Made by a program: the position numbers and the translations under genes. A stretch of 64,000 bases of DNA from contig DAOPYQ010000003.1 in assembly GCA_035352955.1 (NCBI GenBank), positions 12,901-76,900 on the forward strand, written 5' to 3'. Position 1 is the stretch's first letter; each line of letters begins with the position of its first letter. The notes beneath the pieces were generated by a model that was not told the origin of the DNA, searched no databases, and worked only from the letters and a program-made list of their open reading frames with translations. The DNA comes from Candidatus Omnitrophota bacterium (GTDB lineage Bacteria; Omnitrophota; Omnitrophia; Omnitrophales; Aquincolibacteriaceae). Shown piece after piece: positions 14,753-36,131 of the stretch.

Positions 14753-15640
14753 TCAGGTTCTTTTGTAGCAAACGAATTGGATCTGAGCCGCGGTTGCCCA
14801 TGGCATGTATTTTTCGCACCAGCGCCCGATCGCCAATCCTACCCGATTCGCCTCATCGAAAGTTGTTTTATCTCGAAAGATATTTGAAAAAGAGATGACC
14901 GCGGCCGCATGATCCAAGGGATTGATCTCTTGAACATCAAATCCCTCTTTTTCGAGGACCGCGCGAAGTTCATTCCGATGAAAATATTGTTCCCAATAAT
15001 GAGAGTCCGCCGGCCGGCCGAATAACTTGCGCAGAACTTGATTACGCTTTAACCAGCGAAGCGGTGCCATGAGCTTCATGAAGAGATGATTTTGAGGTAC
15101 CGCGACCACGAAAACGGCGCCGGGTTTCAAAACCCGATGTGCTTCCCGGATCGCTTGTTGGGGGCCCGCCGTAAAGTGTTCAATGACGCCCAGAGAAATA
15201 TATCCGCCGAAATAGGCGTCCGGATAAGGGATGGCCGTGACATCCCCGACCTTAACCGGAAGTGACGGGTCATAGGCCAGTACTTTGGCGATGGGATCCT
15301 CATTGTAATCAATGCCTTCCACATCGAACCCGAGTTGCCTCAAGCGGATCAAATAAGGCGCAAGCCCGCAGCCGCCTTCCAGGATCTTTTCCCCTTTAGG
15401 AAGAACACGCAGAAAGATCTCCATTTGTTTTTGAACGCGCTCATAGAAAAAGATCTCGAGAATCTTCTCCATGGGAATGTCCTGCCAGTTCTTTTTCCAG
15501 GCATCCTTCGTGACTTGATCCGTCGCTTCGTTCTTTTGGGTTTTCATCGGGCCTAGTGCTTCAGGGTTTTTCCGTAATAAAGCGACAAGTTCAGCAGGCG
15601 TCTTAGACTCTTTAATACCGTGACGAACATGCGCCAGCAA
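14753..15640 (-). CDS. Class I SAM-dependent methyltransferase
   Basis: 'ILEGGCGLAPYL' motif I; 'GGYISLGVIEHF'. Confidence 0.7.
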   Translation of the reverse strand: MLAHVRHGIKESKTPAELVALLRKNPEALGPMKTQKNEATDQVTKDAWKKNWQDIPMEKILEIFFYERVQKQMEIFLRVLPKGEKILEGGCGLAPYLIRLRQLGFDVEGIDYNEDPIAKVLAYDPSLPVKVGDVTAIPYPDAYFGGYISLGVIEHFTAGPQQAIREAHRVLKPGAVFVVAVPQNHLFMKLMAPLRWLKRNQVLRKLFGRPADSHYWEQYFHRNELRAVLEKEGFDVQEINPLDHAAAVISFSNIFRDKTTFDEANRVGLAIGRWCEKYMPWATAAQIQFVCYKRT

Positions 15641-17004
15641 AACAAGGGATGCTTAAGGAGATACATGAGCTGTCTTAAGAGAAATGCCGGATTTTGATAG
15701 AACTTCTTATAGCTATAACAGTAAAAATCATGGATCTGCTGCGCGGTGACCGTGGGCAATTTCATGATAACGTTATAAAAATCATATTGAGCCCAGTCCT
15801 TGGTCGTGAGGTACCCGTGAGTGTCTGCCCACTTAAACATTTCGGTTCCCGGGTAAGGCGTGGTGATATTGAACTGTACAAGATCGGGTTTGGCGCTCAT
15901 TGCAAATTCCAATGTCTGTTTCATTGTCTCCGGAGTTTCACCCGGATTCCCGTACATAAAGGAAAGTCGCGTTCGGATGCCGGCTTTTTGCGTCATTTCT
16001 ACGACAGGCCGCACCTGGTTCAGATTGATGCCTTTACGGATATTCCGTAAGACGTCGAGATTTGCGCTTTCCACGCCGTAGCAGATCATATGGCAACCCA
16101 CTTTTGCCATTACCTTGAGCGTTTCCGGATCCGCATAATTGATCCGCGACATGCAGGTCCAAGTCACGTTGATCCTATTTTTTTCTAAAAGAGAACAGAA
16201 CGTGCGCACGCGGGCCGGATCCGAAGCAAAGGTGTCATCATAAAAACCGATCTCCTTGATCCCGAAACGCTGTTGCAACAGGGCGATCTCGTCGACAATA
16301 TTTTGTGGACTGCGGTAGCGCATGTGTTTGCTAAGAGAGCTGTGGCAATAGGTGCAGCGGCCCGGACAGCCGCGGCTTGAAAAGATCGAAATGCTCGGTT
16401 CTCTCAAAGCGCCTCCGAGCGGCGGATGGTAACGATGCATGGGAAGCAAATGATAGCTTGGGAAAGGCAGAGAATCGAGGTCTTTGATTTCATCGACCTC
16501 CGGATGTTCCCAATATTGGTCGTTTTCAAGCATCGAAAGGCCTTTGACGTTGATCTTATCCAAGCCCGCGAGAAGTTTTACGACGCTATGCTCCCCTTCT
16601 CCCCGGATCACAAAATCAGCAGCGCTTTCCCGCAGCACCTCTTCAGGAGCCAGGGTCGGATGGACGCCGCCAAAAACGATCCGAGTGTCCGGCCAAAGAG
16701 AACGTATGCGCTTTGAGATCGCATAAGCGCTTTTTGCCATCACAGTCGTGGTCGTGATCCCGACAAAGTCCGGCGCTTTTTCCGATGAGATATTTTCGTA
16801 AACGGATGGATCAGCTTGAAGGTCCATGATGCGGACTTCGGCCCCATATTTTTCAAGCGATGCGGCGATCAAAGCCAGCCCGATCGAAGGATAACAGCTC
16901 GCGACTTTGGCCCAGATGCTTTTAACCTGAATATTCCAAGCCGGATTGATCAGCAGAACGGACCTGCCTTTCAGATCCCACGTCTCCTGAACGGAAGAGT
17001 TCAT
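15553..17004 (-). CDS. B12-binding (class B) radical SAM enzyme
   Basis: N-terminal cobalamin-binding-like domain followed by 'SSRGCPGRCTYCHSS' (CxxxCxxC). Confidence 0.8.
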   Translation of the reverse strand: MNSSVQETWDLKGRSVLLINPAWNIQVKSIWAKVASCYPSIGLALIAASLEKYGAEVRIMDLQADPSVYENISSEKAPDFVGITTTTVMAKSAYAISKRIRSLWPDTRIVFGGVHPTLAPEEVLRESAADFVIRGEGEHSVVKLLAGLDKINVKGLSMLENDQYWEHPEVDEIKDLDSLPFPSYHLLPMHRYHPPLGGALREPSISIFSSRGCPGRCTYCHSSLSKHMRYRSPQNIVDEIALLQQRFGIKEIGFYDDTFASDPARVRTFCSLLEKNRINVTWTCMSRINYADPETLKVMAKVGCHMICYGVESANLDVLRNIRKGINLNQVRPVVEMTQKAGIRTRLSFMYGNPGETPETMKQTLEFAMSAKPDLVQFNITTPYPGTEMFKWADTHGYLTTKDWAQYDFYNVIMKLPTVTAQQIHDFYCYSYKKFYQNPAFLLRQLMYLLKHPLFCWRMFVTVLKSLRRLLNLSLYYGKTLKH

Positions 17005-17981
17005 GAGCGGTCCTTTTCGCCGGTCAGTGGTTGTCCGATCTTCGTTTGTTGGCAGGTCTTTGTAAGCACGCTGGTCATTTCAAGAATACGAAAATTCAAT
17101 GTGTGGATGATCGTTCCAGCGGAAATGAGAATGAGACAGGCTAAAATGCTCGCGGCAGACGTGATCATGTTAAAAAGACCGATGTTCTGCGATCCGCTTA
17201 AAACGCCCAAGACCACATGACTATGAGCAAAAACGCCGGCAAACAAAGCCAGGATCGCGAGAGTGCCGAAAAATGTCAGCGGTTTGTAAGCTTTGAATAT
17301 CCCGAGGATCTTTACGAGAACCCGGATGCCATCGCGGAACGTGCTTAACTTTGAACTGCTGCCCTCCGGTCTCTCTTTATAGGGGATCGGCACTTCTTGA
17401 ATAATGCAATGCCGATAGAGCAATTGAAGCGTCATTTCAGTCTCGAGATCGAAACCCGTTGCCACGACGGGTAAAGCGAGCGCGACTTCGCGCGTAAATG
17501 CGCGGTATCCTGACATGACATCCGATAATTTGGAGCCAAAAATCAAATTGATCAAATTGACGACGAGACGGTTACCAAAAACATGTAAGGGGCGGAAGGC
17601 CGTCATCGTGTAAGTAGACAGGCGCTGACCGACGGTCATATCGGCGCGGTTCAAAAAAAGAGGCTCGAGAAGTTTGCGGGCATTGTCTGCCGGATAAGTG
17701 TCATCCCCGTCGACCATGACATAATAGTCGGCCGCGATGGTGTTCAGCATCGTGGCGACGACAAACCCCTTCCCCTGTTTCTTCTCATGGAATACCGTCG
17801 CTCCGGCCTTGGCCGCGAGGGTCGCCGAATCATCGGTGCTGTTGTTATCAAAAACATAAATAGTAGCTTCCGGCAGCTCTTTTTGAAAATCTTTAACCAC
17901 TTTTCCGATCGTGAGGGCCTCGTTATAACAAGGTATCAGCACTGCAACGGATGGGGTCTTCATAAAACCTCCATTTGTCAT
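17001..17981 (-). CDS. GT2 glycosyltransferase (polyprenol-phosphate sugar synthase-like) with C-terminal TM helices
   Basis: 'VAVLIPCYNEALTI', 'FDNNSTDDS', 'VMVDGDDTY' motifs and C-terminal hydrophobic segments. 4-bp overlap with the upstream radical SAM gene. Confidence 0.8.
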   Translation of the reverse strand: MTNGGFMKTPSVAVLIPCYNEALTIGKVVKDFQKELPEATIYVFDNNSTDDSATLAAKAGATVFHEKKQGKGFVVATMLNTIAADYYVMVDGDDTYPADNARKLLEPLFLNRADMTVGQRLSTYTMTAFRPLHVFGNRLVVNLINLIFGSKLSDVMSGYRAFTREVALALPVVATGFDLETEMTLQLLYRHCIIQEVPIPYKERPEGSSSKLSTFRDGIRVLVKILGIFKAYKPLTFFGTLAILALFAGVFAHSHVVLGVLSGSQNIGLFNMITSAASILACLILISAGTIIHTLNFRILEMTSVLTKTCQQTKIGQPLTGEKDRS

Positions 17982-17988: not shown

Positions 17989-19017
17989 TTAAGTCTTGGT
18001 TAAAAGGAATTCCGCGGTATCGCCACGATGTAACGTATTAACGAACCAGGCATAGGGAAAAAATAGCATTTTCAAGATCTCGCTGTTCCAAATGCGTTCG
18101 CACTGCATGAAATCGATCTTGCGGCGAAAGAAAGCGCCGAGAACAAAAATGATGCTAGCAAAAAAAGTGAATGAACCTTCCGCTGTCCGCGAGCAGACTA
18201 CATCAAAACCGGTCTTTTTGAAAAGTGTTTTAAGGTTCTGCACGGAAAACGCATAAACATGGCGAGGTACTTCCAGGGGCATCCAATATTTTCTGAAGAT
18301 CATGAACGTAAAAGAAGCGGCGTTCGGAACTTGGATCCGCAGAACGCCTCCTTTTTTGAGGACTCGATGCGCTTCCGCGAGCAACCGGTTGACATCAGGC
18401 ACATGTTCAATGACATGTGACATATTGATGACATCAAAAAAATCGTCGGGATAGTTCACATCCCATAGGTCCCCGCACCGCGTTTCGATCGCCGGTTGCC
18501 TGCTGTGTAGCCGATCTAAAGCGGCGCGACTGATATCGTTCCCAAAACAAAAGCAACCGGACTCGAATTTTTCGAGCAGGAACCTTCCGTCCCCGCACCC
18601 CACATCTAAAAGCCGGCAATCGCGGGGCGTGTCGAGCGGGCGGTTAAGATCAAGGAACTTTGAATACAAAAGGCAGTTACATGCTTCGATAGGATGCTTT
18701 AAAAAATGGAAGATCTTTTGCCGGCGGCTTTTGACAGGTTCCGCGCGGCGGGAGTTATCATAGGAGTAGTAGTCCTTGGGATAATATTGTTCCAGCGCTT
18801 TCCCTGTTAACGGCGGATAGAGAAAGATCAAACGGCATTTACGGCATTGATAAAGCTTGAACGATCCCGGGAGGTAATGCATCCGGTCTTTTCCATCGAA
18901 AAGGAAATCGAAATCTTCGTTGCCGCAGATCTTACATGGGGCGATGTTCACGCAACCTCCGGCACCATTGATACAAATCAGGGAAGAAACATTCCGCAAG
19001 GCCCAGGCATTTATCAA
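17989..19017 (-). CDS. Class I SAM methyltransferase with N-terminal Cys4 zinc ribbon
   Basis: 'CKICGNEDFDF...CRKCRLIF' followed by 'LLDVGCGDGRFL' and 'VIEHVPD'. Confidence 0.7.
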   Translation of the reverse strand: MINAWALRNVSSLICINGAGGCVNIAPCKICGNEDFDFLFDGKDRMHYLPGSFKLYQCRKCRLIFLYPPLTGKALEQYYPKDYYSYDNSRRAEPVKSRRQKIFHFLKHPIEACNCLLYSKFLDLNRPLDTPRDCRLLDVGCGDGRFLLEKFESGCFCFGNDISRAALDRLHSRQPAIETRCGDLWDVNYPDDFFDVINMSHVIEHVPDVNRLLAEAHRVLKKGGVLRIQVPNAASFTFMIFRKYWMPLEVPRHVYAFSVQNLKTLFKKTGFDVVCSRTAEGSFTFFASIIFVLGAFFRRKIDFMQCERIWNSEILKMLFFPYAWFVNTLHRGDTAEFLLTKT

Positions 19018-19891
19018 AAAGTGTATCTTTGCGAAGCCATAAATAGACGCGCAATAAAGATAAACGCTTTAAGAACGATTTTTTCTCGATGGAAGTGAAG
19101 AATTGTTCCACTCTTGGAAAATCCGCACCGAGACATGGCTTCAATAGCGCGAGCTCATTTTTCAGCTGACTCGCCGCCCTCTCAAAATCGGCAAAGGAAG
19201 GATAAAAGGCCCCAATATTATTGGCGGCATGTTGGCGGTATCGAACGAGGCGTTGGTTTGAAAAATCGATCTTTCCGCGAGTAGCGGCAAGGACGAAGGC
19301 CATGTGATCATGTATGAACGTGCTATGGGGCAACAATTTTATAAGAAGATCGCGGATCTCCTTGCGGAACATCATACAGCAGCCGGGGATAATATTTCTC
19401 AATAGGGCGAATTCTCCCCAAGGGCCTCCCCTGCGAGGGCGGATCCCTGCCATGCGCCAGAAAGACGCATGAAGGGTCCGAAGGTTTGAATCGCAGACCT
19501 CAAGGTCGGAATAAGCGAGCATCACGTTAGGGGCACGCATCAATGCAGCCAGAACCGAAAGCTTTTTGGACATCCAAACATCGTCCTGGTCCGCATAACA
19601 AATGAGCTCCCCTTGGCATAGAGATAATGCTTGGAGGAAATTTCCAACGATGCCTTTTTTGATTTCATTGCGGCGGACCTTGATCCTTGGGTCCGTTGCA
19701 GCGAATTTTTGAAGCAATTCAAAACTGCCATCGGTCGAAGCATCGTCGACCGCCACCAGTTCCCAGGAAACATGATCCTGCCCTAGGATGCTTTGAAGTT
19801 GTTCTTCAAGAAAGCGAGAACCGTTATAGACAGCCATCGCGATCGAGATGAGAGGCGCCTTTATGATTTCGGATCGCGCATTCCCATTCAT
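18932..19891 (-). CDS. GT2 glycosyltransferase (WbbL/rhamnosyltransferase-like)
   Basis: 'ISIAMAVYNGSRFLEEQLQSILGQ', 'VAVDDASTDGS', 'YADQDDVW' motifs. Confidence 0.75.
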   Translation of the reverse strand: MNGNARSEIIKAPLISIAMAVYNGSRFLEEQLQSILGQDHVSWELVAVDDASTDGSFELLQKFAATDPRIKVRRNEIKKGIVGNFLQALSLCQGELICYADQDDVWMSKKLSVLAALMRAPNVMLAYSDLEVCDSNLRTLHASFWRMAGIRPRRGGPWGEFALLRNIIPGCCMMFRKEIRDLLIKLLPHSTFIHDHMAFVLAATRGKIDFSNQRLVRYRQHAANNIGAFYPSFADFERAASQLKNELALLKPCLGADFPRVEQFFTSIEKKSFLKRLSLLRVYLWLRKDTLFDKCLGLAECFFPDLYQWCRRLREHRPM

Positions 19892-21444
19892 AACGCCGCT
19901 TCTTTCTCATTTTTGAATAATAGCTTCAATCGCCGGAAGATAAAACGAACCGCTCGAAAAGCAAAATAGACCATGACTGCGATCTTGCGGCTGAGCAAAA
20001 GCACCAGGGTGAGTATATGCGGATGGTCTTTAAAAAAACGGACCTTTGCGATCTGTAAAATGCGTTCGGTTGAGATGAAATCGATCTCGAAGAGATAATA
20101 AAGATTATCCCAGTACAAACTCTGCTTCGAGCGCTTTAAATCAAGTTTGGGCGTCCAACGCTCGTAAGACTTCTGTTGCCGATCTTCGACTTCTTCCTCT
20201 CCAATCAGTTTCTTGCTTAAAAGCATTTTGGTGAGATCCGTTTCAGGAAAATGCGTTAGCGTGTGCGTATGTAAGTGGAAGGGCCGCGGAAGTTTTGATA
20301 CCAGGTCGAAAGTCGCTTGTTGGTCTGCCTCGGATTCAAGTTTACTATCAAGGATGATGTCATAGGAACATTGGATGCCAAAACGATTCAGGATCCGAGC
20401 GGCATTGATAATGTCCTCGTTAGACTCGCGGCGGCCATAACATTCCCGGCGGATGAAAGAGGATCCGGATTGAATGCCCATGGTCATGCTAGTTGCGCCG
20501 GCATCTTTAAGCAGTTCAATGAGCGGGGCGGATACGACGCTGGGATAGCAATAACAGAAAAATGGTAGGCCGATCTGCTTCTTGTATTCAGGGGTAAAGG
20601 CTTTTAACCATTCCAAGTTCATGGCGAAGACATCGTCTTCGAACGCCAAAAATGACAGTCCCGGAAAGAGCGATTTTGCCAAAGTCAGTTCTGCAAGAAC
20701 ATTGTCAACGCTGCGGCGGCGGACATACGGTCCCTTGTCCTTATAGACTTTACGCAGAACGTTATTACAGCAATAAGAGCAGCTGTAGGGACAGCCCCGC
20801 GAAGTCATGATCCAATAGGTCTTTTTTTCGCTTGGATACGCTTTGATCTTTCCGTCTTCAAAGAGGTATTTGTCAGCGGAGGTAAAATCCGGGAACGGAA
20901 GGCGGTCCAGATCTTGGATCAAGGGACGCAGGTCATTTTTAATGATCGTGCCATTTTTATTTATCCAAAGATTCTTGATGTCATCGATAGGCGCGTGTTG
21001 ATGCAACCTTGCCGCCAATTCCACGATCGCATCTTCCCCTTCTCCTACGCAGACAATATCCGCATGTTGAATGCTTTGATCCGGCCGGATGGTGGCATGA
21101 ACCCCGCCCCAGAGGACAACGGCTCCGGTCTCTTGCCGGATCCTTCGAGATAATTCCGAAGCAAGCTCGAAATGAGTGGAACGGACGCTCATACCTACGA
21201 ACAGGGGTTGAGCGGCTTTAATGGCGCTGACGAAACAATCCATTTCGGATTCGCTGGGGAAAGTCATAGTGTTGTTCGGATTCAATTTTTTAAAGAAAAA
21301 GGACCTGACATCCCAGCCCGTTTTCTTGAGCACGGAATGGAGAGTGCAGACCGGAAATGAATCAATATCGTAAAAAGCTACAAGAATGATCGTTGGTTTT
21401 TCTTTTGCGGGCGCGCGCCGTTGTCCGATGGATGCGTTATTCAT
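19888..21444 (-). CDS. B12-binding (class B) radical SAM enzyme
   Basis: N-terminal B12-like domain and 'TSRGCPYSCSYCCNN' cluster. Confidence 0.8.
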   Translation of the reverse strand: MNNASIGQRRAPAKEKPTIILVAFYDIDSFPVCTLHSVLKKTGWDVRSFFFKKLNPNNTMTFPSESEMDCFVSAIKAAQPLFVGMSVRSTHFELASELSRRIRQETGAVVLWGGVHATIRPDQSIQHADIVCVGEGEDAIVELAARLHQHAPIDDIKNLWINKNGTIIKNDLRPLIQDLDRLPFPDFTSADKYLFEDGKIKAYPSEKKTYWIMTSRGCPYSCSYCCNNVLRKVYKDKGPYVRRRSVDNVLAELTLAKSLFPGLSFLAFEDDVFAMNLEWLKAFTPEYKKQIGLPFFCYCYPSVVSAPLIELLKDAGATSMTMGIQSGSSFIRRECYGRRESNEDIINAARILNRFGIQCSYDIILDSKLESEADQQATFDLVSKLPRPFHLHTHTLTHFPETDLTKMLLSKKLIGEEEVEDRQQKSYERWTPKLDLKRSKQSLYWDNLYYLFEIDFISTERILQIAKVRFFKDHPHILTLVLLLSRKIAVMVYFAFRAVRFIFRRLKLLFKNEKEAAL

Positions 21445-26269: not shown

Positions 26270-27268
26270 TTAGTAAATACCGCGCTGGCATACAGCGCAG
26301 GCTCCCAGTGTGTCTTCGAGAATGGCGTCACGGACTTTTTTCAATTGAGGAGAATGCCATGCTTCCTCAATGGTCATGGTTGCAATATTCCCAAGTTTTA
26401 AAACATCGCCGATAAACGCACAACACGGAAGAATGTCCCCATTAGCACGAACGGCCAAACGTCTCCAGGGTTCAATGCAGCAATAGAGACGCGGTTTTTT
26501 CAAGACTTCCGCGTTCATCGCGAGATCAGGTTTAACATATTTTTGGATATCAACATGGTCCACCCTGTCTTTCCAATAGGAGATGAAATCGTTCTTTTCA
26601 GATGCGTTTTCCTTCATCTCAATAAAGGATACGCGCACCCACGGCAAACGACCGGTGGCCCGGGGGCCGCGCATTTCCATGAATCGTAATAGATTTTTCT
26701 TTGCCATTTCATAGCCCTTTCCGCGAATAATACCGTAGGTTTCTGGCCGGAAAGCATCCAGGGATACATAGAGCCGCGTCAATCCGCATTCGAGAAGTTT
26801 CTGCGACATCTTTTCGTTAAGCAATAAGGCGTTCGTAATGAGGATCGAATCGATGATGCCGTGATCGCGGGCGTATTGGAGCATGGGAATAAGGTCCAGA
26901 TGGATCAAGGGTTCGGCATAGGCGCCGACATTGATGCTGACGGTTCCTTTTGGGGTGCATTCATCGATGACGCGGCAAAACTGCTCATAGCTTAATTTCT
27001 TCTTCGTATTGACGGTGACCGGAACAGGATAAAGATCGTAATGAGTTTTGTTCCGAGGACACATGATGCATTGCTGATTGCAAAGATCATTAAGTTCGAA
27101 ATCGATATGAATGGGAAAATCCAATGCTTGACCTTTCGTGACCGGAATATTCCACAATTCGCGATATTTCTTGAAAGGCTCGCCGAAATGGCGCGTGAGG
27201 TAATTTTCGACATTGTCATTCGTAAAGACATTCGTGACCAGGCTTTTGCTGCCCGTGTTTTTATTCAT
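26270..27268 (-). CDS. Radical SAM enzyme with SPASM/twitch-like C-terminal Cys cluster
   Basis: 'LNDLCNQQCIMCPR' (CxxxCxxC). C-terminus 'LPCCAFIGD...GACAVCQ'. Confidence 0.7.
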   Translation of the reverse strand: MNKNTGSKSLVTNVFTNDNVENYLTRHFGEPFKKYRELWNIPVTKGQALDFPIHIDFELNDLCNQQCIMCPRNKTHYDLYPVPVTVNTKKKLSYEQFCRVIDECTPKGTVSINVGAYAEPLIHLDLIPMLQYARDHGIIDSILITNALLLNEKMSQKLLECGLTRLYVSLDAFRPETYGIIRGKGYEMAKKNLLRFMEMRGPRATGRLPWVRVSFIEMKENASEKNDFISYWKDRVDHVDIQKYVKPDLAMNAEVLKKPRLYCCIEPWRRLAVRANGDILPCCAFIGDVLKLGNIATMTIEEAWHSPQLKKVRDAILEDTLGACAVCQRGIY

Positions 27269-28337: not shown

Positions 28338-29743
28338 GCCTCCTGACCGTGGATATTCTTGATATTGAGCGGGCGGAATCCGGCTTTCTGGAACGCTTTA
28401 ACGGAAGCATGATTCTCTTTTTTGATGAAAGCATCGACCATTTTGATCTCCGACCGGGTGCGGAGAACCTGATGAACGGCAGCGCGCAACACACGAGCAG
28501 CAAGCCCTTTCCCCCGATATTGAGGTGCAAGCACGACAGAAATGGTGGCGCGTTCCCCGCGGGCATCAAAGCGGATCTGCCCGATCGTACGATCGCGTAA
28601 CACAGCCTTTAGAAAGAGACAATCCGGATCACGGAGTTTTTCATTGAACCAACGGCAATGTTCCTTCCAGAGGATCTGAGCCGAGTGAAAAGAAACGGCG
28701 CGGACTTCCGGAGCGGAGGACCAATGATAGATAAGAGCTCGGTCAGCGGCCCGGACGGGTTGGAACCGGATGACTGCATCGCATAATGCCTTTGCAGAGC
28801 GCAGAGCGCCCCGGCCGTCGACCGCTTTCTGGCCGGCCCGGCTCATACGGCTCCTTGAGCGATGATCCAAACGGTGAAGCAGCAGAGCGATATTCCCGAT
28901 GATCTTCGGATCCTCGTGCGATCCGGCTTCCTTGAGCAAACCGGTTTTCCGCCAGCCCAGAAGATTCAGCCGCTGATTCGAGGCGAATCGAACGCCGATG
29001 ACCGGGAGACCGCAAGCCGCGAGTTCGTTCGTGGTTTGTCCCCCACCTGAAATAGCGGCATCGCAACGAAGCATCAGTGCCTTGATCTGACTTCCGGAAA
29101 GAGAACGGTAAAAATGAGCCCGAGGGAAAGCCCGCTTATTCGGAAAGGGATAAGCGGTAATGACGTGAAACCGGTATTGAGGGAAGGAAAGGCTCAGCCG
29201 GGTCAGAAGCTGTTGGATAAAACCGGTCCGCTCCATACCGCCGAATGTCAAAAGAAGGTCTCGAAATTTAGTCCGAACGGTTCGATGACCGACCTTCCAA
29301 AAATTCTTTCTTAAGAGAGCAAAGCGGGAACCGAGCAGCAAAGGAAGCGCTCGAAAACCATAACGGAGCTTTTCTGTTCCGATCGCGCCATTCAGGATAA
29401 TGCCTTCCGGATAAGCCAGGCGTTTGAAATCATCGAGGAATACAGGTACCGGGACCTGTTCTGACACATTCTTGTAAAAAGAACGGGGCGCAAGATAAGA
29501 GTCAACGATCACGATATCGGCCTTCTTCAATTCACTGCGGACTCGTCCCTGATCCTTGAGCCAATCAAAGACCGAGTTCAATTGCTTCCCGAATTGACGG
29601 CGCGCGGAGTTGTCGCCGTTAACGAATAAAAAAGCATCGATGCCTATTTCGGTGAGCGCATCACGCAAGGCAATACAGCGTGTGATATGGCCAAAGCCGA
29701 TGCGTTTGCCTCCTTCCGTGAAAATGACGGCGCGAAGCCTCAT
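28310..29743 (-). CDS. PseG (UDP-sugar hydrolase) fused to PseH-like GNAT N-acetyltransferase
   Basis: N-terminus 'FTEGGKRIGFGHITRCIALRDAL' matches the PseG signature. C-terminal ~160 aa is GNAT ('QYRGKGLAARVL...AFQKAGF'). Confidence 0.7.
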   Translation of the reverse strand: MRLRAVIFTEGGKRIGFGHITRCIALRDALTEIGIDAFLFVNGDNSARRQFGKQLNSVFDWLKDQGRVRSELKKADIVIVDSYLAPRSFYKNVSEQVPVPVFLDDFKRLAYPEGIILNGAIGTEKLRYGFRALPLLLGSRFALLRKNFWKVGHRTVRTKFRDLLLTFGGMERTGFIQQLLTRLSLSFPQYRFHVITAYPFPNKRAFPRAHFYRSLSGSQIKALMLRCDAAISGGGQTTNELAACGLPVIGVRFASNQRLNLLGWRKTGLLKEAGSHEDPKIIGNIALLLHRLDHRSRSRMSRAGQKAVDGRGALRSAKALCDAVIRFQPVRAADRALIYHWSSAPEVRAVSFHSAQILWKEHCRWFNEKLRDPDCLFLKAVLRDRTIGQIRFDARGERATISVVLAPQYRGKGLAARVLRAAVHQVLRTRSEIKMVDAFIKKENHASVKAFQKAGFRPLNIKNIHGQEAWHFVQDQL

Positions 29744-30531
29744 GCGCCCACCTTCCCCGGTTGATCTGTATGAGTTCCCCGGACATGAATGCCTTGCTTG
29801 CGTAAGTGCTCTTTGACTTCGAGCGGGGTTTTCTCGGTGAAATGAAAAATGCTGGCGGCGGCTATTGCCGCGGCTTTCCCTTGCAGGATGGCCGCGTAAA
29901 AATCATTCAAACAACCGGCGCCACCGGAGGCGATGACGGGAATGCTTACTTTTTGCGTTACGTGCCGGATCAGATCAAGGTCATAACCTTTCATGGTGCC
30001 GTCATGCTCGATGGATGTGATCAGAATCTCCCCAGCGCCACGTTTTTCGGCTTCGGCCGCCCATGCTCCGACTTCACGTCCCGTGGAGCGCGTACCACTG
30101 TGACTGTGACATTCATAAGAGCCGTCACTTTTACGGCGGGCATCAATGCTCACGATAATGCACTGGGAACCGAAGCGCTTTGCCGCCTGCGTGATAAATT
30201 CAGGATTCTCATAAGCGGCGCTATTGATCGTGATCTTATCGGCTCCGGACAAAAGAAGTTTCCGGATGACATCGAGATCCCCGACGCCTCCGCCCACCGT
30301 TAAGGGAACGAAACATTCAGCGGAAAATTCACTGACGGAACTGTAATCGGGTTCCCTTTTTTCAAGTGTGGCCGCGATATCGACGAGAATGAGTTCATCG
30401 ACGTCCCTGAGATTATAAACTTTGATCGCGGGAAGGACCGATCCGATGCGGCGCCAGCTGTCAAAGCCGATCCCTTTGACCAAGCATTCGTTTTTCCAGA
30501 GAAGCGTTGGAATCACACGGGTCTTCAGCAT
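29740..30531 (-). CDS. HisF-like cyclase subunit (WbuZ-type) of the sugar amidotransferase module
   Basis: 'RVIPTLLWKN...VKG', 'DELILVDI', 'VGGGVGD' are HisF (TIM barrel) motifs. Lies in the Pse cluster next to the HisH-like gene. Confidence 0.8.
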   Translation of the reverse strand: MLKTRVIPTLLWKNECLVKGIGFDSWRRIGSVLPAIKVYNLRDVDELILVDIAATLEKREPDYSSVSEFSAECFVPLTVGGGVGDLDVIRKLLLSGADKITINSAAYENPEFITQAAKRFGSQCIIVSIDARRKSDGSYECHSHSGTRSTGREVGAWAAEAEKRGAGEILITSIEHDGTMKGYDLDLIRHVTQKVSIPVIASGGAGCLNDFYAAILQGKAAAIAAASIFHFTEKTPLEVKEHLRKQGIHVRGTHTDQPGKVGA

Positions 30532-30532: not shown

Positions 30533-31147
30533 TTAGAGGCTCAGAAAGTTGCGGATCAGGCGAAAGCCTGCCTTCGAGCTTTTTTCGGGATGAAATTGTG
30601 TGCCGAGGATATTTTTATGGGCGACTACGGACGTGAAGTGGCCGCAGTAGGGGGTTTGGGCCACCACATCCTCTTCGTTTAATGCCCGGAAGTGATAGCT
30701 GTGCACAAAATAGAAATCATCGCGGTCCTGGATGCCAGAGAGGATCGGATGCGGCCGAGTGATCGAGATCTCATTCCACCCAACGTGCGGCAGACGCTCC
30801 TCACCTGACGGAGGACTAAGTTTTTCAACCTTACCGGGGATGAGGCCGAGTCCCTCCATGTTACCGCCTTCTGTGCCATGGTCCGCAAGCAGCTGCATTC
30901 CGAGACAGATCCCTAAGAGAGGGATCTTCTCGACGAGAGCGGCCTGGCGGATCTCCTGGATCCAATCCATGGTGTTCAGATGCTGCATACCATCGTAGAA
31001 GGAGCCGACTCCTGGCAGCACAATTTTAGAGGCGCTGCGCAGTTCCGAGGGGGTCTGGCTGCAGGTCACTTGGGCGCCGCATTCCTCGAAGGAGCGACGG
31101 ACGGAGCCAAGATTTCCCATGTTGTAGTCAATGATCACGACATTCAT
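30533..31147 (-). CDS. HisH-like class I glutamine amidotransferase (WbuY-type)
   Basis: 'VVIIDYNMGNLGSV', 'LPGVGSF', 'GICLGMQLL' catalytic Cys region; 'HSY' near the C-terminus. Confidence 0.8.
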   Translation of the reverse strand: MNVVIIDYNMGNLGSVRRSFEECGAQVTCSQTPSELRSASKIVLPGVGSFYDGMQHLNTMDWIQEIRQAALVEKIPLLGICLGMQLLADHGTEGGNMEGLGLIPGKVEKLSPPSGEERLPHVGWNEISITRPHPILSGIQDRDDFYFVHSYHFRALNEEDVVAQTPYCGHFTSVVAHKNILGTQFHPEKSSKAGFRLIRNFLSL

Positions 31148-32300
31148 GGTCTAGGATTATCATCGTTGATCTTTTTGAGATTGCCGAGTCGGTCTTTGAG
31201 GAGGTTTCCGCGCGCATCGGCCAAAAAGATCTTTTTATTGGTGAACCGGTCGCAGATCTTGATGAAGTCTTCCACCGTGATGTTCAGGGGCTCGAGGATC
31301 TTTTCTAAAGGCTTTCCAAGATAGGTCCAGGGGAACTTTCCGTCATGCAATTTGATGAGTTCAAGTGCGTCCTGCCTTGTGATCCTTCCCCGCCGTACGT
31401 GAAGACATGCGATGTCCGTGGCGCGGCTGAAACCGAACTTCAGGAATTTGAAGTAATCATGGATCCCGGTCTGATGATTATCCACGTTCTCATAGTTGAC
31501 GATGGATCCTTCGACCGTGGCGGAGTGGGGTTCAAAGCCATGTGCTTGAGCCAGCAGCGCATTGGAATAACCGTCCCATCCCAGGTAGTATCCAGGAAGA
31601 TGCCGGTCACGCCGACCCGAGCAAGCTCTTCATCCGAAGGATACGTGTAAGGTATCAATTGTTCTTTCTTGATCCCGTCCTGCCCGATCATATCCGAAAC
31701 ACGAAGGCCAAGAAGCCCTCCGAATTCTTCAAGCCAGCGCCGATTCAGAACATTGTTGGAACTGGCGCTCGCAGGGCCGCCATATTCGTTCTGGGAATTC
31801 TCGCCCCAGATCAAAAGCGGAACGCCATATTGGACCGCGGCCCTTACCGGGATCGTAAAAATCCCGACATGCTCGGGCCACGAGACATCTCCCACTTGCA
31901 TGAGTCCGATCCGATTCAGTTTCCGTCGAACCACTTTGTTCGGCGAAAATTCAATATAGTCCACGCCAAGGCTCTTAATATTCTCAATGTTGCGTCTCCC
32001 GACCGGCGAAAGATCACAGGTGGTCGCCGTCACGCAAAGGGGGTTCATCCCAAGCTGAAGCATGCGGATCACCTGGTATGTGGAATCCTTGCCGCCGCTT
32101 ACCGGAACGATGCAGTCCCAGCGGGTGCCGTCCTTGGAGCGGTATTTATCGAGAACAACGCACAACTCCTTGCGACGGGCGTCCCAATCCACCACTTTGC
32201 GGGTCTCATAACTGCGGCATGCATTACAAATGCCTTCCTCATCGATGTGAAGATCGGGTTTGGTATGAGGCATGACGCATCGTGTGCAATATTTCAGCAT
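31144..32300 (-). CDS. N-acetyl sugar amidotransferase (WbuX/PseA-like PP-loop ATPase), split by an apparent frameshift near 31575-31630
   Basis: N-terminus 'MLKYCTRCVMP...CNAC' zinc ribbon and 'VPVSGGKDS' PP-loop. Start ~32300 has a good RBS. The C-terminal 'HQTGIHDYFKFLKFG...FPWTYLGKPLE' continues in another frame (ORFs 31440-32522 and 31144-31485). Confidence 0.7.
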
Positions 32301-32311
32301 AAAAATCCCTC

Positions 32312-32962
32312 CTAGGAATGTGCCGGCTTTTCCAGAAGAAACCAGGTGATATCGTCTTGAGGAAAGTGAAGGTCGCGATGATAACCGAAGCCGTAGTTTA
32401 AAAGCCGTAGGCCGGGATACCGGTCCAGCATTTCTCCGGCAAAGTCCCGTTTGAACAGCCGGTCTGTATGGCCGCGGTACGGGATAGTTGTCGGGCTTGG
32501 ATTGTAGTATTCGGCGATGCAAATATACCGGGCGCTCGAACGATAAAGCGTTTCATAGACCTTGGCGAGGTAATCAGGATTGATGTGGATCAGCACTCCC
32601 TTGATCAACACCATGTCCCATGTCCTCCTGGTTTTGAAATCAAGGATCGAAACCGGAAAAAGCTCGACGTCCTTCATGTTCTTTTTAAGCGCGGTATTGG
32701 CTTTTTGATTGATCTCAACGGAAGCAAGCGACGCTTCCGGTAAAAGCACTCGAAGCGCCTGGAGGTTCAATCCGATGTTGGCGCCAAATTCAATGACCGA
32801 ACCGATCTTTCCGGTGCCAGCAAGGACCTTTGCGAAAAGAGCGGTATTCGCCGCGATCCAGTTATTCCCCCGGTTGCGCGCAACGTACTCTTCTCCGAAT
32901 TTTCCGGCCCAGAACTTTTCCTGATCCGTTTTGTAATTGCGTGAATTACTCCTTGCCATCAA
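32312..32962 (-). CDS. Pseudaminic acid biosynthesis-associated methyltransferase-like protein
   Basis: 216 aa; 'SVIEFGANIGLNLQAL' motif I. Size and neighbourhood match the Pse-associated methylase family. Confidence 0.65.
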   Translation of the reverse strand: MMARSNSRNYKTDQEKFWAGKFGEEYVARNRGNNWIAANTALFAKVLAGTGKIGSVIEFGANIGLNLQALRVLLPEASLASVEINQKANTALKKNMKDVELFPVSILDFKTRRTWDMVLIKGVLIHINPDYLAKVYETLYRSSARYICIAEYYNPSPTTIPYRGHTDRLFKRDFAGEMLDRYPGLRLLNYGFGYHRDLHFPQDDITWFLLEKPAHS

Positions 32963-32979
32963 AATCCTCCTCGGGATCT

Positions 32980-34020
32980 TTAACGGGATTTCGCTCTTCT
33001 TGGTTTGGAAATTCCAAGGTCGTAGCCAAGACGGGTCAGTATTTTTCTCATTTGATCCACCGAAAGATGGCGCGGATTGTTGAGCGAGTCATATTCGAAA
33101 TCATCGCGCACCTGTTTTCCGCCCTTCATCTTGGAGGAGCGGAGTCCCCAGAACTCAAATTCGGGTTCAACGATGAAGAAATCATTGAATTCCAAGGAGT
33201 GACGGGCGTCGCTCACAGGCAAAAGAACTTCATGCAGCTTTTCGCCAGGGCGAATGCCCACGATCTTGGTTTTAATGCCGGGGGCAATGGCTTCAGCGAG
33301 CGCCATGATATTCATGCTCGGGATTTTAGGGATGAAGATCTCTCCCCCTGCCATGCGTTCAAGACATTTCAAAACGAAATGGGCGCCTTCTTCAAGGGTG
33401 ATCCAAAAACGTGTCATGCGAGGATCAGTGATGGGAAGGACCCCTTCATGCCGTTTTTCCATAAAAAAAGGAACCACGCTGCCGCGGCTGCCTAGGACGT
33501 TGCCATAGCGAACCACGCTGAATACGTCCTGATTGCCTCCGGCATAAGAGTTGCCATCGACAAAAAGTTTGTCCGAGCAAAGTTTCGTCGCTCCGTAAAG
33601 ATTGATGGGGTTCGCGGCTTTGTCAGTGCTGAGCGCAATCACCTTCTTGACCTTTTGGTCAATGGCGCAATCAATGATGTTCTGAGCGCCGATGATATTG
33701 GTTTTGACCGCCTCAAAGGGATTGTATTCAGCGGCGGGCACTTGTTTCATTGCGGCGGCATGAATGACGTAGTCCACGTTATGAAAGGCGCGCAACAGTC
33801 TTTCTTTATCGCGAACGTCGCCCAGGAAATAGCGGATCGCCGGGTATTTTTGAGGTGAAAAGGTCTGCGCCATTTCGAATTGCTTGAATTCGTCACGGCT
33901 AAAAATAATGATCCGCCGGGCGGCACATTGATCCAAAAGGATATTAGTCAGCATTTTTCCTAACGAACCGGTCCCTCCGGTGATTAAGATCGTTTTATTG
34001 TTTAAAAAATCGTAGCTCAC
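32980..34020 (-). CDS. pseB: UDP-N-acetylglucosamine 4,6-dehydratase (inverting), PseB
   Basis: 'KTILITGGTGSLGK', 'YGATKL', 'RYGNVLGSRGSVVPFF' are canonical PseB/FlaA1 motifs. Confidence 0.85.
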   Translation of the reverse strand: MSYDFLNNKTILITGGTGSLGKMLTNILLDQCAARRIIIFSRDEFKQFEMAQTFSPQKYPAIRYFLGDVRDKERLLRAFHNVDYVIHAAAMKQVPAAEYNPFEAVKTNIIGAQNIIDCAIDQKVKKVIALSTDKAANPINLYGATKLCSDKLFVDGNSYAGGNQDVFSVVRYGNVLGSRGSVVPFFMEKRHEGVLPITDPRMTRFWITLEEGAHFVLKCLERMAGGEIFIPKIPSMNIMALAEAIAPGIKTKIVGIRPGEKLHEVLLPVSDARHSLEFNDFFIVEPEFEFWGLRSSKMKGGKQVRDDFEYDSLNNPRHLSVDQMRKILTRLGYDLGISKPRRAKSR

Positions 34021-34061
34021 TTTGACCTCCTGGTTAATATGCGAACGGACTGCTTTTTCAG

Positions 34062-36131
34062 CTAAGATTGAGACGGTACGGCTCTGACAGTTCTAAAAAG
34101 ACTATGGACGTTCCCTACTCGCGTTATGATCTTGCTCAAAGCGCTGACGGAAGTCCCATAGCGCTTAAAAAGATCCTGGCGTGTTTTCATTTGCTCATCG
34201 GTATACTCAAAAACATAATGGATCTTCGCAGCGCCTGAGAAATGCGACAGCGGGGTTTGTTCCTCCGCTTTATGCCATTTTAAAAGGTCATAGGGGCTTA
34301 ACATGCTGATGGGTGAAGTGTCTGCTTCGCTGTCGATGCAGCCGGCGAGCCTGTTCTTTTCAAATGAAACGAGCGTATCGATCTCTTGGTGAAGTTGTTC
34401 GATCATTTTCTTGTGCGGCGGACGTTCGGAAACGATCTTTTTGATCGTGTTGCCGATATGTTCTGCCCAAAGGCCTGCGGCTAAAGCTAAGCCTAAGCTT
34501 TTGTATTTATAGATGAGGTTCCCTCCGAGCTCGCCGCGGAGAAGCTTTTCATAGTTCTCGTCCCGCATAAAAAATTCGATAAGGTCTTCCTCGGAATCCC
34601 AAAGCTCGTCCCGTGTTTCCTTCAAAAAGTCATTAACGATATCGCGGATCTTTTGGGGCGCTTCCGGAATGGCGGCGTAAAGACCTAGGATCATGTCGTC
34701 GGTCTTGATCCCAAGATCCCTGGCATAATGAAAAAGCATCTGGAACGGACTGTCGCTGTAAAGAGTTTCAACGAAAAGGCATAAACCGCGAAGCCATAAA
34801 TAATCTTCAAAGGGCATATCCTTCGTGGCGATGCCGACCTCTTCATAATCAAAGATCCGCTTGCCATCGTATTCTCCAAAGTTAAGCGGTACGATACGGA
34901 ACTTGCCTTGGATCCCGAATTTCTTCCGATATTCCGGGTCTTGAAACTCGGTCCCCTGAAGAAGCATGAGCGAATAAATGCACATGCTGGTGATCCCGGC
35001 ATCCATCAATTGACGTACCCCCCGCACGAAGGTTTCTTTGCTTTCACCGGGAAGCCCGATGATCATTTCGCCGCGAGTGATCCTTCCTTTTTTTTGAAGA
35101 TGCTTCGTAATGGCGGAAAAGTGTTCGATCTTGATATTGTCACGGTGAATGTTCTTTAGAACTTTCGGTTCCATGGATTGCACCGCCATGGTCACAGGGA
35201 AGGATTCCCCCATGAGATCGGTGATCTGGATCACTCTCTCCTTGTTATTCTTACCGGTCGAGGCAAGAATCTGCCGGGGCCATCCGTATTTTCTTTGGGT
35301 GCGATAGAGCGCTTCGGCGATCTCTTTGTCGCGAGGATACATGCCGAAATTCGTGTCCGCGATGTGCAGATTGACGATCCCGAGTTGACCCGCGCGCGGC
35401 GCGATGTAATCGATCTCGTTGACGATGCGCTCCACGGAAAACATGGCGATCGGATTGAAGTATTTATGACTTGTGTGGCAATAGGAACATGTGAACGGAC
35501 AACCGCGATTCGTTTCAATGAAAGGCGTCAGAACACCATCAAAAAAAGGATCCAGGAGGCCGGTCAGATAAGGAGATGGGATCTCATCGAGATTTTTTAG
35601 ACGCGGCGTGACACCGCCTGTGATGAGTTGCGGATGCTTGGACGTGCGTGAACCGGGTGCAAGATAAACACATCCGGCAAGGGGCTGTTTCAAAATGCCT
35701 TTTTCCGGATCCCGTTGCAAAAGTAATTGGCGGATCACATTGCAGAATGAGACCTCGCCTTCAAATTCGAGAAAGATATCCGTGTTCGGCCGCTGAAGTA
35801 CGAACGGAAGTTGGAGCGCATGATCATGCGGAAAGTTGGCCCCGCCTTGAAGGGTCACCATATTAGGGTTCAACCGTTTTCCAATGCCGGCAACGTGTTC
35901 TGAGAGATGACTATTCCAGCAATAATTGCTCAGCGCAAGAACATCGGGCGGTGAATCTTTGAGCGCTTGGATCGCTTTTAAGGGAAGTTTGAAAAGGGAT
36001 ATCTCAACGCTTTCGCCAAGTTGTTTTTTTAAATACGAGGCAATAAACGCGATATTCAGCGGGATCGTATCATTGACCACCATCTTCACATAATGCGTCA
36101 GGTCGCAGAGATAAATTCTGAGAGGTTTCAT
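34062..36131 (-). CDS. B12-binding (class B) radical SAM enzyme (689 aa) embedded in the pse operon
   Basis: N-terminal B12-like domain, 'TNRGCPFTCSYCHTS' cluster, and a ~250-aa C-terminal extension. Confidence 0.8.
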   Translation of the reverse strand: MKPLRIYLCDLTHYVKMVVNDTIPLNIAFIASYLKKQLGESVEISLFKLPLKAIQALKDSPPDVLALSNYCWNSHLSEHVAGIGKRLNPNMVTLQGGANFPHDHALQLPFVLQRPNTDIFLEFEGEVSFCNVIRQLLLQRDPEKGILKQPLAGCVYLAPGSRTSKHPQLITGGVTPRLKNLDEIPSPYLTGLLDPFFDGVLTPFIETNRGCPFTCSYCHTSHKYFNPIAMFSVERIVNEIDYIAPRAGQLGIVNLHIADTNFGMYPRDKEIAEALYRTQRKYGWPRQILASTGKNNKERVIQITDLMGESFPVTMAVQSMEPKVLKNIHRDNIKIEHFSAITKHLQKKGRITRGEMIIGLPGESKETFVRGVRQLMDAGITSMCIYSLMLLQGTEFQDPEYRKKFGIQGKFRIVPLNFGEYDGKRIFDYEEVGIATKDMPFEDYLWLRGLCLFVETLYSDSPFQMLFHYARDLGIKTDDMILGLYAAIPEAPQKIRDIVNDFLKETRDELWDSEEDLIEFFMRDENYEKLLRGELGGNLIYKYKSLGLALAAGLWAEHIGNTIKKIVSERPPHKKMIEQLHQEIDTLVSFEKNRLAGCIDSEADTSPISMLSPYDLLKWHKAEEQTPLSHFSGAAKIHYVFEYTDEQMKTRQDLFKRYGTSVSALSKIITRVGNVHSLFRTVRAVPSQS

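Follow-up and report, generated by a model that had tools for sequence, protein, structure and literature searches.

A TokK- and CysS-like B12-type radical SAM enzyme in a pseudaminic acid gene island of a Candidatus Omnitrophota bacterium, with a predicted role in nonulosonic acid C-methylation

Why should a bacterial surface-glycan gene island carry four radical S-adenosylmethionine (SAM) proteins with B12-binding-type domains, and what might these proteins do to the sugars assembled around them? The question is raised by a 64-kb stretch of contig DAOPYQ010000003.1 from a Candidatus Omnitrophota metagenome-assembled genome (MAG), the whole of which we call the window. The four proteins, termed here RS1 to RS4, are all encoded on its minus strand (Table 1). 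The explanation that we favour, and which we consider probable without being assured of it, is that they belong, together with a SPASM-domain radical SAM enzyme, to the core of a surface-glycan island of about 45 kb, in which RS4 would C-methylate a nonulosonic acid and RS1, RS2, RS3 and the SPASM enzyme would act as further sugar modifiers.

In each of the four open reading frames (ORFs) an N-terminal B12-binding domain is joined to a single CxxxCxxC motif, as a first-pass annotation of this DNA had reported, and Pfam and motif scans bear this out. Against the Pfam B12-binding (PF02310, gathering score 32.1 bits) and Radical_SAM (PF04055) models, RS1 scores 91.6 and 90.9 bits, RS2 53.7 and 55.8 bits, and RS3 68.7 and 78.5 bits, respectively. 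RS4 scores 46.8 bits for Radical_SAM and 26.3 bits for the B12-binding domain, which is under the gathering score; its N-terminal domain is supported by PF02310 matches precomputed for other members of the RS4 family, as well as by a family profile and a structural model described below. In each protein the motif lies just past the N-terminal domain (first cysteine at C213 in RS1, C218 in RS2, C202 in RS3 and C211 in RS4), and its cysteines are invariant in the family alignments. RS1 to RS4 are thus class B radical SAM proteins, defined by the B12-binding domain, and cobalamin use is predicted for them from their domains. The same annotation had also described them as paralogues, which the comparison does not sustain: RS1 and RS3 share 31% identity, the remaining pairs give 21-25% or local matches only, and each protein has closer relatives in other phyla than in its own genome, so that they are best classed as four distinct, widespread families, uncurated and uncharacterised.

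The RS4 sequence matches only two solved structures, those of TokK (E-value 1.7e-41) and CysS (3.9e-36), and a profile of 52 RS4-family sequences matches the same two at 8.8e-64 and 9.9e-52. TokK and ThnK, which alkylate carbapenems at C6, and CysS, which extends the alkoxy group of cystobactamids, are three-domain cobalamin-dependent radical SAM enzymes that act as iterative C-methylases. An AlphaFold (AF2) model of RS4 (pLDDT 88.7, pTM 0.89) superposes in Foldseek on full-length TokK over about 730 alignment columns and all three domains (template-modelling scores TMq 0.74-0.75 and TMt 0.77-0.78) and on CysS with TM scores of 0.69-0.72 and 0.75-0.78, compared with just 0.42-0.58 on OxsB and TsrM. 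Since the superposition is full-length, RS4 has the large C-terminal domain that the TokK study calls distinct to TokK. In TokK, Trp76 is positioned 3.8 Å below the cobalt at the lower corrin face, and its conservation is reported only for TokK, ThnK and CysS (bioRxiv 10.1101/2021.07.10.451909); this residue, within the segment S72-C73-Y74-V75-W76-N77, aligns with W72 of RS4, which is invariant in the 52 RS4-family sequences.

RS4 is embedded among genes for the nonulosonic acid pseudaminic acid. PseB, PseC and PseI score above their NCBIfam cut-offs, and with a PseG-like hydrolase fused to a PseH-like acetyltransferase and a cytidylyltransferase in the PseF role they make up what appears, by these family matches, to be a genuine pathway to pseudaminic acid linked to cytidine monophosphate (CMP). 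Beside it the island encodes acetamidino tailoring by WbuX, HisH and WbuZ, as well as a methylase of the Pse-associated family. The WbuZ/HisF-like and HisH-like pair is the ammonia-delivering part of such a tailoring system.

A comparable setting recurs where RS4 relatives occur in other genomes. Homologues 49-64% identical and about 700 aa long are found in Omnitrophota, Deltaproteobacteria, Elusimicrobia, Latescibacterota and Betaproteobacteria. A deltaproteobacterial orthologue sits between a UDP-N-acetylglucosamine (UDP-GlcNAc) 2-epimerase-type gene and genes for PIG-L, HisH and HisF, in a legionaminic-type cluster that also has NeuB, a PglD-like acetyltransferase and CTP_transf_3, and a betaproteobacterial one, also in a legionaminic-type cluster, is flanked by GFO_IDH and CTP_transf_3. 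This betaproteobacterial locus (L005, from a MAG) holds three B12-radical SAM genes, the RS4 orthologue included, and one SPASM gene. Across 79 RS4 loci from species-representative genomes, with NeuB counted on the well-flanked ones, a NeuB homologue lies within 10 kb of the RS4 homologue at 12 of 17 loci of at least 45% identity to RS4, at 8 of 16 loci of 35-44% identity (often merely 57-503 bp away) and at 5 of 34 loci below 35%, compared with 1 of 40 in a comparison set of RS2-type loci. As tblastn under-detected cytidylyltransferases near RS4 orthologues, this was corrected by a Pfam census of the neighbours: among 131 ORFs lying no more than 3.5 kb away in 23 RS4 loci, families of the nonulosonic acid pathway predominate, namely NeuB (8), CTP_transf_3 (8), CBS-NTP_transferase (7), DegT (6), Epimerase_2 (5) and PglD_N (5). 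Besides epimerases, the commonest close neighbour was adh_short (13 of 131 ORFs), and Plug domains of TonB-dependent receptors were seen three times, both near the orthologues of loci L007-L036.

SAR11-type single-cell genomes have RS4 orthologues too (47-53% identity), and in most of them NeuB or another amino-sugar gene is close by. The carriers include single-amplified genomes (SAGs) and MAGs of Pelagibacteraceae and other alphaproteobacteria (L011-L013, L015, L016, L018, L021, L042 and L079) and a Prochlorococcus SAG (L017). The GC content of the locus is 0.25-0.34 in these carriers, as is typical of the hosts (0.25-0.33 in several Pelagibacteraceae single-cell genomes), and 0.69 in an Elusimicrobia MAG, a range which indicates that the RS4 gene has the base composition of its host.

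The mechanism assumed for RS4 is the one established for TokK (bioRxiv 10.1101/2021.07.10.451909). A first SAM would methylate cob(I)alamin, and a second would be cleaved at the [4Fe-4S] cluster to yield a 5'-deoxyadenosyl radical; this would take a hydrogen atom from an sp3 carbon, located either in the sugar itself or in its N-acyl or amidino substituent, and the resulting substrate radical would take the methyl group from methylcobalamin, perhaps repeatedly. The substrate would be a nonulosonic acid intermediate of the pseudaminic acid pathway, possibly nucleotide-linked. As RS4 orthologues reside in both pseudaminic-type and legionaminic-type clusters, the target is probably common to the two sugars, and the overlap of the RS4 start with the cytidylyltransferase gene, along with the frequent CTP_transf_3 neighbours, offers a CMP-linked substrate as a lead and only as a lead. 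We infer, with reasonable support from this structural and genomic analogy, that RS4 uses cobalamin to C-methylate a feature that pseudaminic and legionaminic acids share.

RS3 shows a different kind of conservation. Its homologues are 69-81% identical across phyla (named members come from Omnitrophota, Thermodesulfovibrionales, Nitrospirae, Dehalococcoidales, Brocadiaceae and Syntrophaceae), and 114 of the 120 best matches are exactly 462 aa long; orthologues retrieved by tblastn are 70-74% identical. The RS3 homologue search did not return the window's own sequence, its best match being at 81%, and the RS4 and RS1 searches gave exact or partial self-matches. The high conservation of RS3 is unusual and points to a reaction under tight constraint, passed on by transfer together with its clusters. 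The context samples are small, with six outside loci looked at for RS3 and three for RS1, and NeuB and/or CTP_transf_3 lies near the RS3 orthologue in four of those six. An unannotated ORF of 412-680 aa comes next after the orthologue in all six, and the window has the same order, its 633-aa protein directly downstream of RS3 being a candidate glycosyltransferase. These ORFs give faint matches only, to the LIC12162, PFTS and BFO_1060 putative polysaccharide transferase families. Orthology among the proteins of about 630 aa was considered and rejected (pairwise BLAST E 0.49 and 0.003; 16-18% identity under MAFFT), and the arrangement is a positional regularity, not a family. Glycan loci elsewhere can be richer still in such enzymes: one of the outside loci, from a Thermodesulfovibrionales MAG (L086), packs four B12-radical SAM genes and a SPASM gene into about 19 kb.

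The SPASM radical SAM enzyme that the first-pass annotation had placed among these genes is confirmed by its Pfam domains, Radical_SAM and SPASM (PF13186). Its best PDB match is BtrN (1.4e-7), and it reaches no NCBIfam equivalog. SPASM genes 26-28% identical to it adjoin CTP_transf_3 genes in two of the RS3 loci (L088 and L172), and in the latter, a Nitrospirae MAG (GCA_015233655), a 573-aa CTP_transf_3-Radical_SAM-SPASM fusion is encoded three genes from the RS3 orthologue. This adjacency and fusion suggest that the SPASM enzymes of such clusters may handle CMP-activated sugars. We propose that RS3 and the SPASM enzyme would add further modifications, in roles specific to nonulosonic acid clusters.

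RS1 belongs to a module of its own. Immediately upstream lies a family 2 glycosyltransferase (GT2) gene of the polyprenyl-phosphate hexose synthase type, with NCBIfam matches to AglJ (228 bits), dolichyl-phosphate hexose transferase (85.8 bits) and PpgS (60.5 bits), and downstream a class I SAM methyltransferase, whose start gene callers place 5 nt past the RS1 stop on identical contigs. AglJ, the dolichyl-phosphate hexose transferases and PpgS load sugars onto polyprenyl phosphate. Homologues 42-76% identical to RS1 occur in Glassbacteria, DPANN archaea, Planctomycetes, candidate phyla radiation (CPR) bacteria and Anaerolineales. The combination of radical SAM enzyme, class I methyltransferase, GT2 and a membrane-embedded GT-C transferase of the PMT_2 type is preserved in three distant loci (RS1 identity 44-59%), one of them from a DPANN archaeon, and the pairing with the methyltransferase is found in loci L089 and L091. 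It extends to a 701-aa metagenomic fusion protein (P0325), in which residues 3-438 are RS1-like (45% identity) and a C-terminal class I methyltransferase spans about 499-635, the order of the domains being that of the genes in the window, RS1 followed by methyltransferase. By analogy with these arrangements, RS1 and its methyltransferase would act on a sugar put on polyprenyl phosphate by the GT2 and transferred outside the cytoplasm by a GT-C enzyme, and we infer that the pair modifies a sugar whose delivery depends on a lipid-phosphate carrier together with that GT-C enzyme.

For RS2 the picture is broader. The gene stands between that for a Wzx flippase and a further GT2, with overlapping stops and starts, and its family is large and diverse, with 2968 cluster representatives at E<=1e-30. 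The best NCBIfam match is TIGR04013 at 101 bits, against a cut-off of 251. Among 121 neighbour ORFs in 22 loci of RS2 relatives the commonest are radical SAM/B12 genes, GT2, class I methyltransferases and nucleoside diphosphate (NDP)-sugar epimerases or dehydratases, a neighbourhood weakly consistent with glycan tailoring, and RS2 would accordingly be assigned in our explanation to another sugar of the repeat unit. Taken over the four families, the claim of sugar tailoring in a glycan cluster made by the first-pass annotation fares well, the relatives elsewhere likewise residing in glycan clusters, and a glycan-tailoring role for these radical SAM enzymes appears strongly supported.

A number of observations weigh against the explanation that we favour. 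None of RS1 to RS4 reaches an NCBIfam equivalog or subfamily cut-off. RS4 scores 198.8 bits against the KedN5 family (NF033712), whose cut-off is 700, and its family is best placed as related to, yet separate from, KedN5. In RS4, as read from the profile alignment, L289 and T220 stand in place of the substrate-contacting residues Arg280 and Trp215 of TokK, which are thus not conserved, so that its substrate and site of attack are not given by TokK; such a loss is expected for a different substrate. The RS2 context is drawn from relatives of only 27-38% identity. Scans with Rfam and for tRNAs found no cobalamin riboswitch, other Rfam family or tRNA in the window, and no gene for cobalamin biosynthesis or uptake lies within these 64 kb, which are part of the genome. 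WbuX is frameshifted, so that the pathway may be partly inactive or the assembly flawed, and no C-methylated nonulosonic acid was found in the literature searched. For RS1, RS2 and RS3, finally, the best PDB sequence match is AprD4 (2.4e-23, 6.7e-9 and 3.8e-16, respectively; for RS3 followed by OxsB at 2.1e-10 and MgmA at 2e-9), and the best named families of RS1 and RS3 are HpnJ and BchE, both non-methylases (PMC9204698).

The last two points bear on an alternative in which one or more of RS1 to RS3 are not methylases and instead perform AprD4-like deoxygenation or dehydration, HpnJ-like ring contraction, oxidation or epimerisation, with cobalamin optional and the methyl groups supplied by class I methyltransferases; we regard this as a possibility of real weight, if a doubtful one. 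AprD4 binds no cobalamin, and with ArsL it illustrates that a Rossmann-like N-terminal domain is no guarantee of cobalamin binding (PMC12931638). It is also the best Foldseek match of the RS1 AF2 model (pLDDT 94) with TM scores of 0.75-0.81, ahead of the methylase MgmA (0.60/0.69), although it may rank first as HpnJ, BchE, Fom3 and MoeK5 have no solved structures. The AprD4 family model (NF033070, cut-off 500 bits) gives 103.1 bits for RS1, 74.9 for RS3 and 32.4 for RS2, and only from the radical SAM core onward (residue 171 in RS1), whereas the N-terminal domains of RS1-RS3, which exceed the Pfam B12-binding cut-off, align with the N-terminal parts of the HpnJ, BchE, PhpK, HpnR and BzaD models, all of them cobalamin-dependent families. 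Ring contraction by HpnJ on a GT2-made lipid-linked glucosamine parallels the association of RS1 with its GT2, and the pairing and fusion of RS1 with a conventional methyltransferase likewise suit a separate source of methyl groups. The scores themselves are low, HpnJ (TIGR03471, cut-off 577.6 bits) giving 233 for RS1, 121.9 for RS3 and 72.1 for RS2, and BchE (TIGR02026, cut-off 481.35 bits) 204.8 for RS1 and 139.1 for RS3, which matches the family of the ladderane enzyme, another non-methylase, equally well at 139 bits. The window holds no hopanoid genes and no photosynthesis or bacteriochlorophyll context; on both counts the caveat entered in advance, that the closest homologues might prove to be hopanoid or protoporphyrin cyclase enzymes unconnected with sugars, does not apply. 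Membership in the HpnJ, BchE, HpnR, PhpK/Sden_1168, BzaD, ladderane enzyme, MgmA and AprD4 families was rejected for RS1-RS4, the scores being far under the cut-offs and the contexts unfit.

Of the class B enzymes characterised so far, most are methylases (PMC9204698, PMC12931638), which speaks against the non-methylase alternative. Methylation is the commonest class B chemistry; for RS1-RS3 it is not established, and these proteins are open to other chemistry. The suggestion of the first-pass annotation that all four methylate unactivated carbons is justified as a prediction for RS4, through its place in the TokK/CysS structural family, and is not yet supported for RS1-RS3, which match no characterised methylase family.

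A second alternative, that the substrates are not sugars and that the enzymes sit in the island by co-regulation or chance, would make them act on the polyprenyl carrier lipid, on a phosphonate or phosphinate (P-methylation of the Sden_1168/PhpK type), on a peptide (SPASM/RiPP type, for ribosomally synthesised and post-translationally modified peptides) or on a cofactor. RS1 and RS3 do match, below threshold, the P-methyltransferase models Sden_1168 and PhpK as well as the RiPP C-methyltransferase model, and SPASM enzymes are often peptide maturases. All such matches are far under the family cut-offs, however. RS4, RS3 and RS1 are repeatedly syntenic with sugar genes in different phyla, and the partners in the fusions found are a cytidylyltransferase and a class I methyltransferase, neither of them a domain that handles peptides. 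No phosphoenolpyruvate (PEP) mutase or other phosphonate gene was present among the island ORFs scanned with Pfam, and phosphonate or phosphinate decoration was rejected on this ground. We consider non-sugar substrates most unlikely, and retain the glycan-tailoring explanation.

The architecture of the island agrees with an operonic arrangement with GT2, methyltransferase and pse genes, as had been claimed: all sizeable ORFs between about 1.4 and 45.3 kb lie on the minus strand, and start/stop overlaps of 4-8 bp are common between them. Its content includes the Wzx flippase, several GT2 and GT4 glycosyltransferases and several GT-C (PMT_2) membrane transferases, the latter unusually many, and the count of six SAM methyltransferases given earlier agrees with the six class I enzymes that we find in the window. 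The genes for pyruvate:ferredoxin oxidoreductase (PFOR) and LptD, both in the island's flank, together with a public record of the exact RS4 sequence as a protein of a Candidatus Omnitrophota MAG, point to an anaerobic diderm host; the 2-oxoacid:ferredoxin oxidoreductase subunit genes, a mark of an anaerobe, stand between two blocks of glycan genes. GC content is 0.492 over the island (1-45309) and 0.563 in the flank (46000-64000), a gap compatible with horizontal acquisition.

This gap bears on a third alternative, that of an island in partial decay, or only recently acquired, where some genes do not function in this host. WbuX is split in two frames that match successive parts of TIGR03573 (positions 2-235 at 236.5 bits for 31440-32522, positions 271-343 at 58 bits for 31144-31485), which marks either a pseudogene or an assembly error, and one RS4 orthologue elsewhere (L006) lies among transposases and gene fragments. 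The four radical SAM ORFs are nonetheless full length with intact cluster motifs, and independent metagenome assemblies carry an identical RS1 with its gene order unchanged. We judge this alternative highly unlikely, and an island with RS4 as its predicted nonulosonic acid C-methylase remains the explanation we prefer.

Table 1. Coordinates of features in the window, and of ORFs from other loci (L numbers) that are discussed in the text
Feature	Coordinates	Strand	Matches and remarks
DUF2079 membrane protein	2276-3901
GT-C/PMT_2-type membrane glycosyltransferase	3911-5842
GT-C/PMT_2-type membrane glycosyltransferase	5844-7322
Class I SAM methyltransferase	7319-7948
Class I SAM methyltransferase	7915-8733
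Class I SAM methyltransferase, RS1 partner	14753-15547	-	Pfam Methyltransf_23/11; ORF list runs to 15640
RS1, B12-binding radical SAM enzyme	15553-17004	-	483 aa
GT2, polyprenyl-phosphate hexose synthase type	17001-17981	-	AglJ/Dpm1/PpgS-like; Pfam Glycos_transf_2
Class I SAM methyltransferase	17989-19017	-	Pfam Methyltransf_23 89.9 bits
GT2 glycosyltransferase downstream of RS2	18932-19891	-	Pfam 90.5 bits; NCBIfam weak TuaG/WcaA-like
RS2, B12-binding radical SAM enzyme	19888-21444	-	518 aa
Wzx-type flippase	21437-22924	-	Pfam Polysacc_synt, Polysacc_synt_3
Unannotated protein, candidate glycosyltransferase	22921-24822	-	633 aa; no Pfam match; faint LIC12162-family transferase match 6.6e-5
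RS3, B12-binding radical SAM enzyme	24841-26229	-	462 aa
SPASM-domain radical SAM enzyme	26270-27268	-	332 aa; Radical_SAM 56.4, SPASM 48.1 bits; motif at C63; immediately downstream of pseI
PseI, pseudaminic acid synthase	27261-28337	-	TIGR03586 454.6 vs 340.25 bits; Pfam NeuB + SAF
PseG-like hydrolase fused to GNAT acetyltransferase (PseH-like)	28310-29743	-	PseG 121.8 vs 153.55, PseH 31.9 vs 93.1 bits; Pfam GNAT
WbuZ/HisF-like and HisH-like pair	29740-30531, 30533-31147	-	WbuZ 286.7, AglZ/HisF2 262.4, HisH 230.9 bits
WbuX-type N-acetyl sugar amidotransferase, two frames	31144-32522	-	TIGR03573
Pseudaminic acid biosynthesis-associated methylase (class I)	32312-32962	-	TIGR03587 296.2 vs 112.05 bits
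PseB, inverting UDP-GlcNAc 4,6-dehydratase	32980-34020	-	TIGR03589 504.7 vs 407.75 bits
RS4, three-domain B12-binding radical SAM enzyme	34062-36131	-	689 aa; start overlaps cytidylyltransferase stop
CMP-sugar cytidylyltransferase (PseF role)	36128-36868	-	CTP_transf_3 123.4 bits; no NCBIfam equivalog reached; immediately upstream of RS4
PseC aminotransferase	36865-38076	-	TIGR03588 507.8 vs 423.5 bits
GT-C/PMT_2-type membrane glycosyltransferase	38521-40389
ORF without family match	40528-42930		800 aa
GT-C/PMT_2-type membrane glycosyltransferase	43681-45309
Class I SAM methyltransferase	47066-47965
2-oxoacid:ferredoxin oxidoreductase subunit genes	49084-51699
GT-C/PMT_2-type membrane glycosyltransferase	51779-53566
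ORF after RS3 orthologue	L086:10448-12490
ORF after RS3 orthologue	L087:10504-12378
ORF after RS3 orthologue	L088:10454-12403
ORF after RS3 orthologue	L172:3163-4536
ORF after RS3 orthologue	L173:10410-11648
CTP_transf_3-Radical_SAM-SPASM fusion	L172:5942-7663		573 aa

Nonulosonic acids such as pseudaminic and legionaminic acid decorate flagella, capsules and lipopolysaccharide, and shape recognition by phages, predators and the immune system. To our knowledge, their described diversity consists of N-acyl, amidino and O-substituents that ordinary enzymes put in place. Against this background, a TokK-like enzyme embedded in the cluster predicts a C-C bond-forming modification of nonulosonic acids, and RS3 and the SPASM enzyme predict further radical steps; at least two of the four families, RS4 and RS3, travel with genes for sialic-acid-like sugars, which indicates chemically undescribed sugar modifications. 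The RS1 module, spread from DPANN archaea to Omnitrophota, in turn flags an uncharacterised modification of a lipid-linked sugar. For radical SAM enzymology these families would offer a new testable substrate class whose candidate intermediates are defined, and for glycan chemists a genomic marker of unusual sugars. A true requirement for cobalamin would make the composition of the surface glycan hinge on the supply of B12, which the organisms concerned are often unable to make; the presence of a B12-type enzyme among the glycan genes of SAR11 would be noteworthy. In its furthest form, which we advance tentatively and hold to be somewhat short of an even prospect, the proposal is that the RS4 clade is a new family of cobalamin radical SAM methylases dedicated to nonulosonic acids and making chemically undescribed C-alkylated pseudaminic and legionaminic acids, that it forms with RS3 and the SPASM enzyme a cross-phylum toolkit, and that surface-glycan diversity in SAR11, marine bacteria of very high abundance, is tied to B12 availability.

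The literature that we searched, whose coverage is incomplete, yielded no report that places class B radical SAM enzymes in surface-glycan clusters, those for nonulosonic acids included, and none that links radical SAM enzymes with pseudaminic acid or nonulosonic acids. Radical SAM enzymes and legionaminic acid are co-mentioned in passing only, with neither in title or abstract, as judged by titles and term counts, and nothing was found there on SAR11 in combination with radical SAM, cobalamin and hypervariable regions. An Omnitrophota genome survey holds nothing relevant, and a 2026 review of B12-radical SAM enzymes has no mention of polysaccharides, glycans or sugars.

Among known systems, a close one to the island is the canonical PseB/C/H/G/I/F pathway with PseA/WbuXYZ acetamidino tailoring of Campylobacter and Helicobacter. 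The window shares PseB, PseC, PseI and WbuX/WbuZ/HisH with it and has the Pse-associated methylase; radical SAM enzymes do not figure in descriptions of the characterised pathways. The substrate of Fom3 is cytidylyl-2-hydroxyethylphosphonate, so that this enzyme would be a class B precedent for a CMP-linked substrate of RS4, the two having no specific sequence relationship. For RS1, a parallel in arrangement is HpnJ, which with the GT2 HpnI converts a lipid-linked glucosamine of hopanoids to a cyclitol by ring contraction and transfers no methyl group (PMC9204698); in both cases a B12-type enzyme would remodel a GT2-installed lipid-linked sugar, but RS1 has a class I methyltransferase as neighbour or fusion partner, is accompanied by GT-C transferases and has no hopanoid genes beside it. 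AprD4 (PDB 6fd2), the radical SAM 1,2-diol dehydratase of apramycin biosynthesis, resembles RS1-RS3 in size and acts on an aminosugar, and unlike RS1-RS3, which carry canonical Pfam B12-binding domains, it binds no cobalamin.

The precedent for the sugar C-methylation proposed here, and before that in the first-pass annotation, is provided by GenK, GenD1/GntE, Fms7 and MoeK5, class B C-methylases of sugars in aminoglycoside and moenomycin pathways (PMC9204698, PMC12931638), which we liken to RS4 by reaction and not by comparison of sequences; GenK, GenD1, Fms7 and MoeK5 belong to secondary-metabolite pathways of actinomycetes, and none is reported from a surface-glycan or nonulosonic acid cluster. 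In structure, RS4 stands closest to TokK and CysS, with which it shares the Rossmann cobalamin domain, the radical SAM barrel, the large C-terminal domain, a similar length and the tryptophan under the cobalt, and from which it differs by an identity of about 19-20% in structural alignment and by the lost substrate residues already described. Where TokK and CysS act on pantetheine- or carrier-linked antibiotic intermediates, RS4 is set within nonulosonic acid biosynthesis for a surface glycan.

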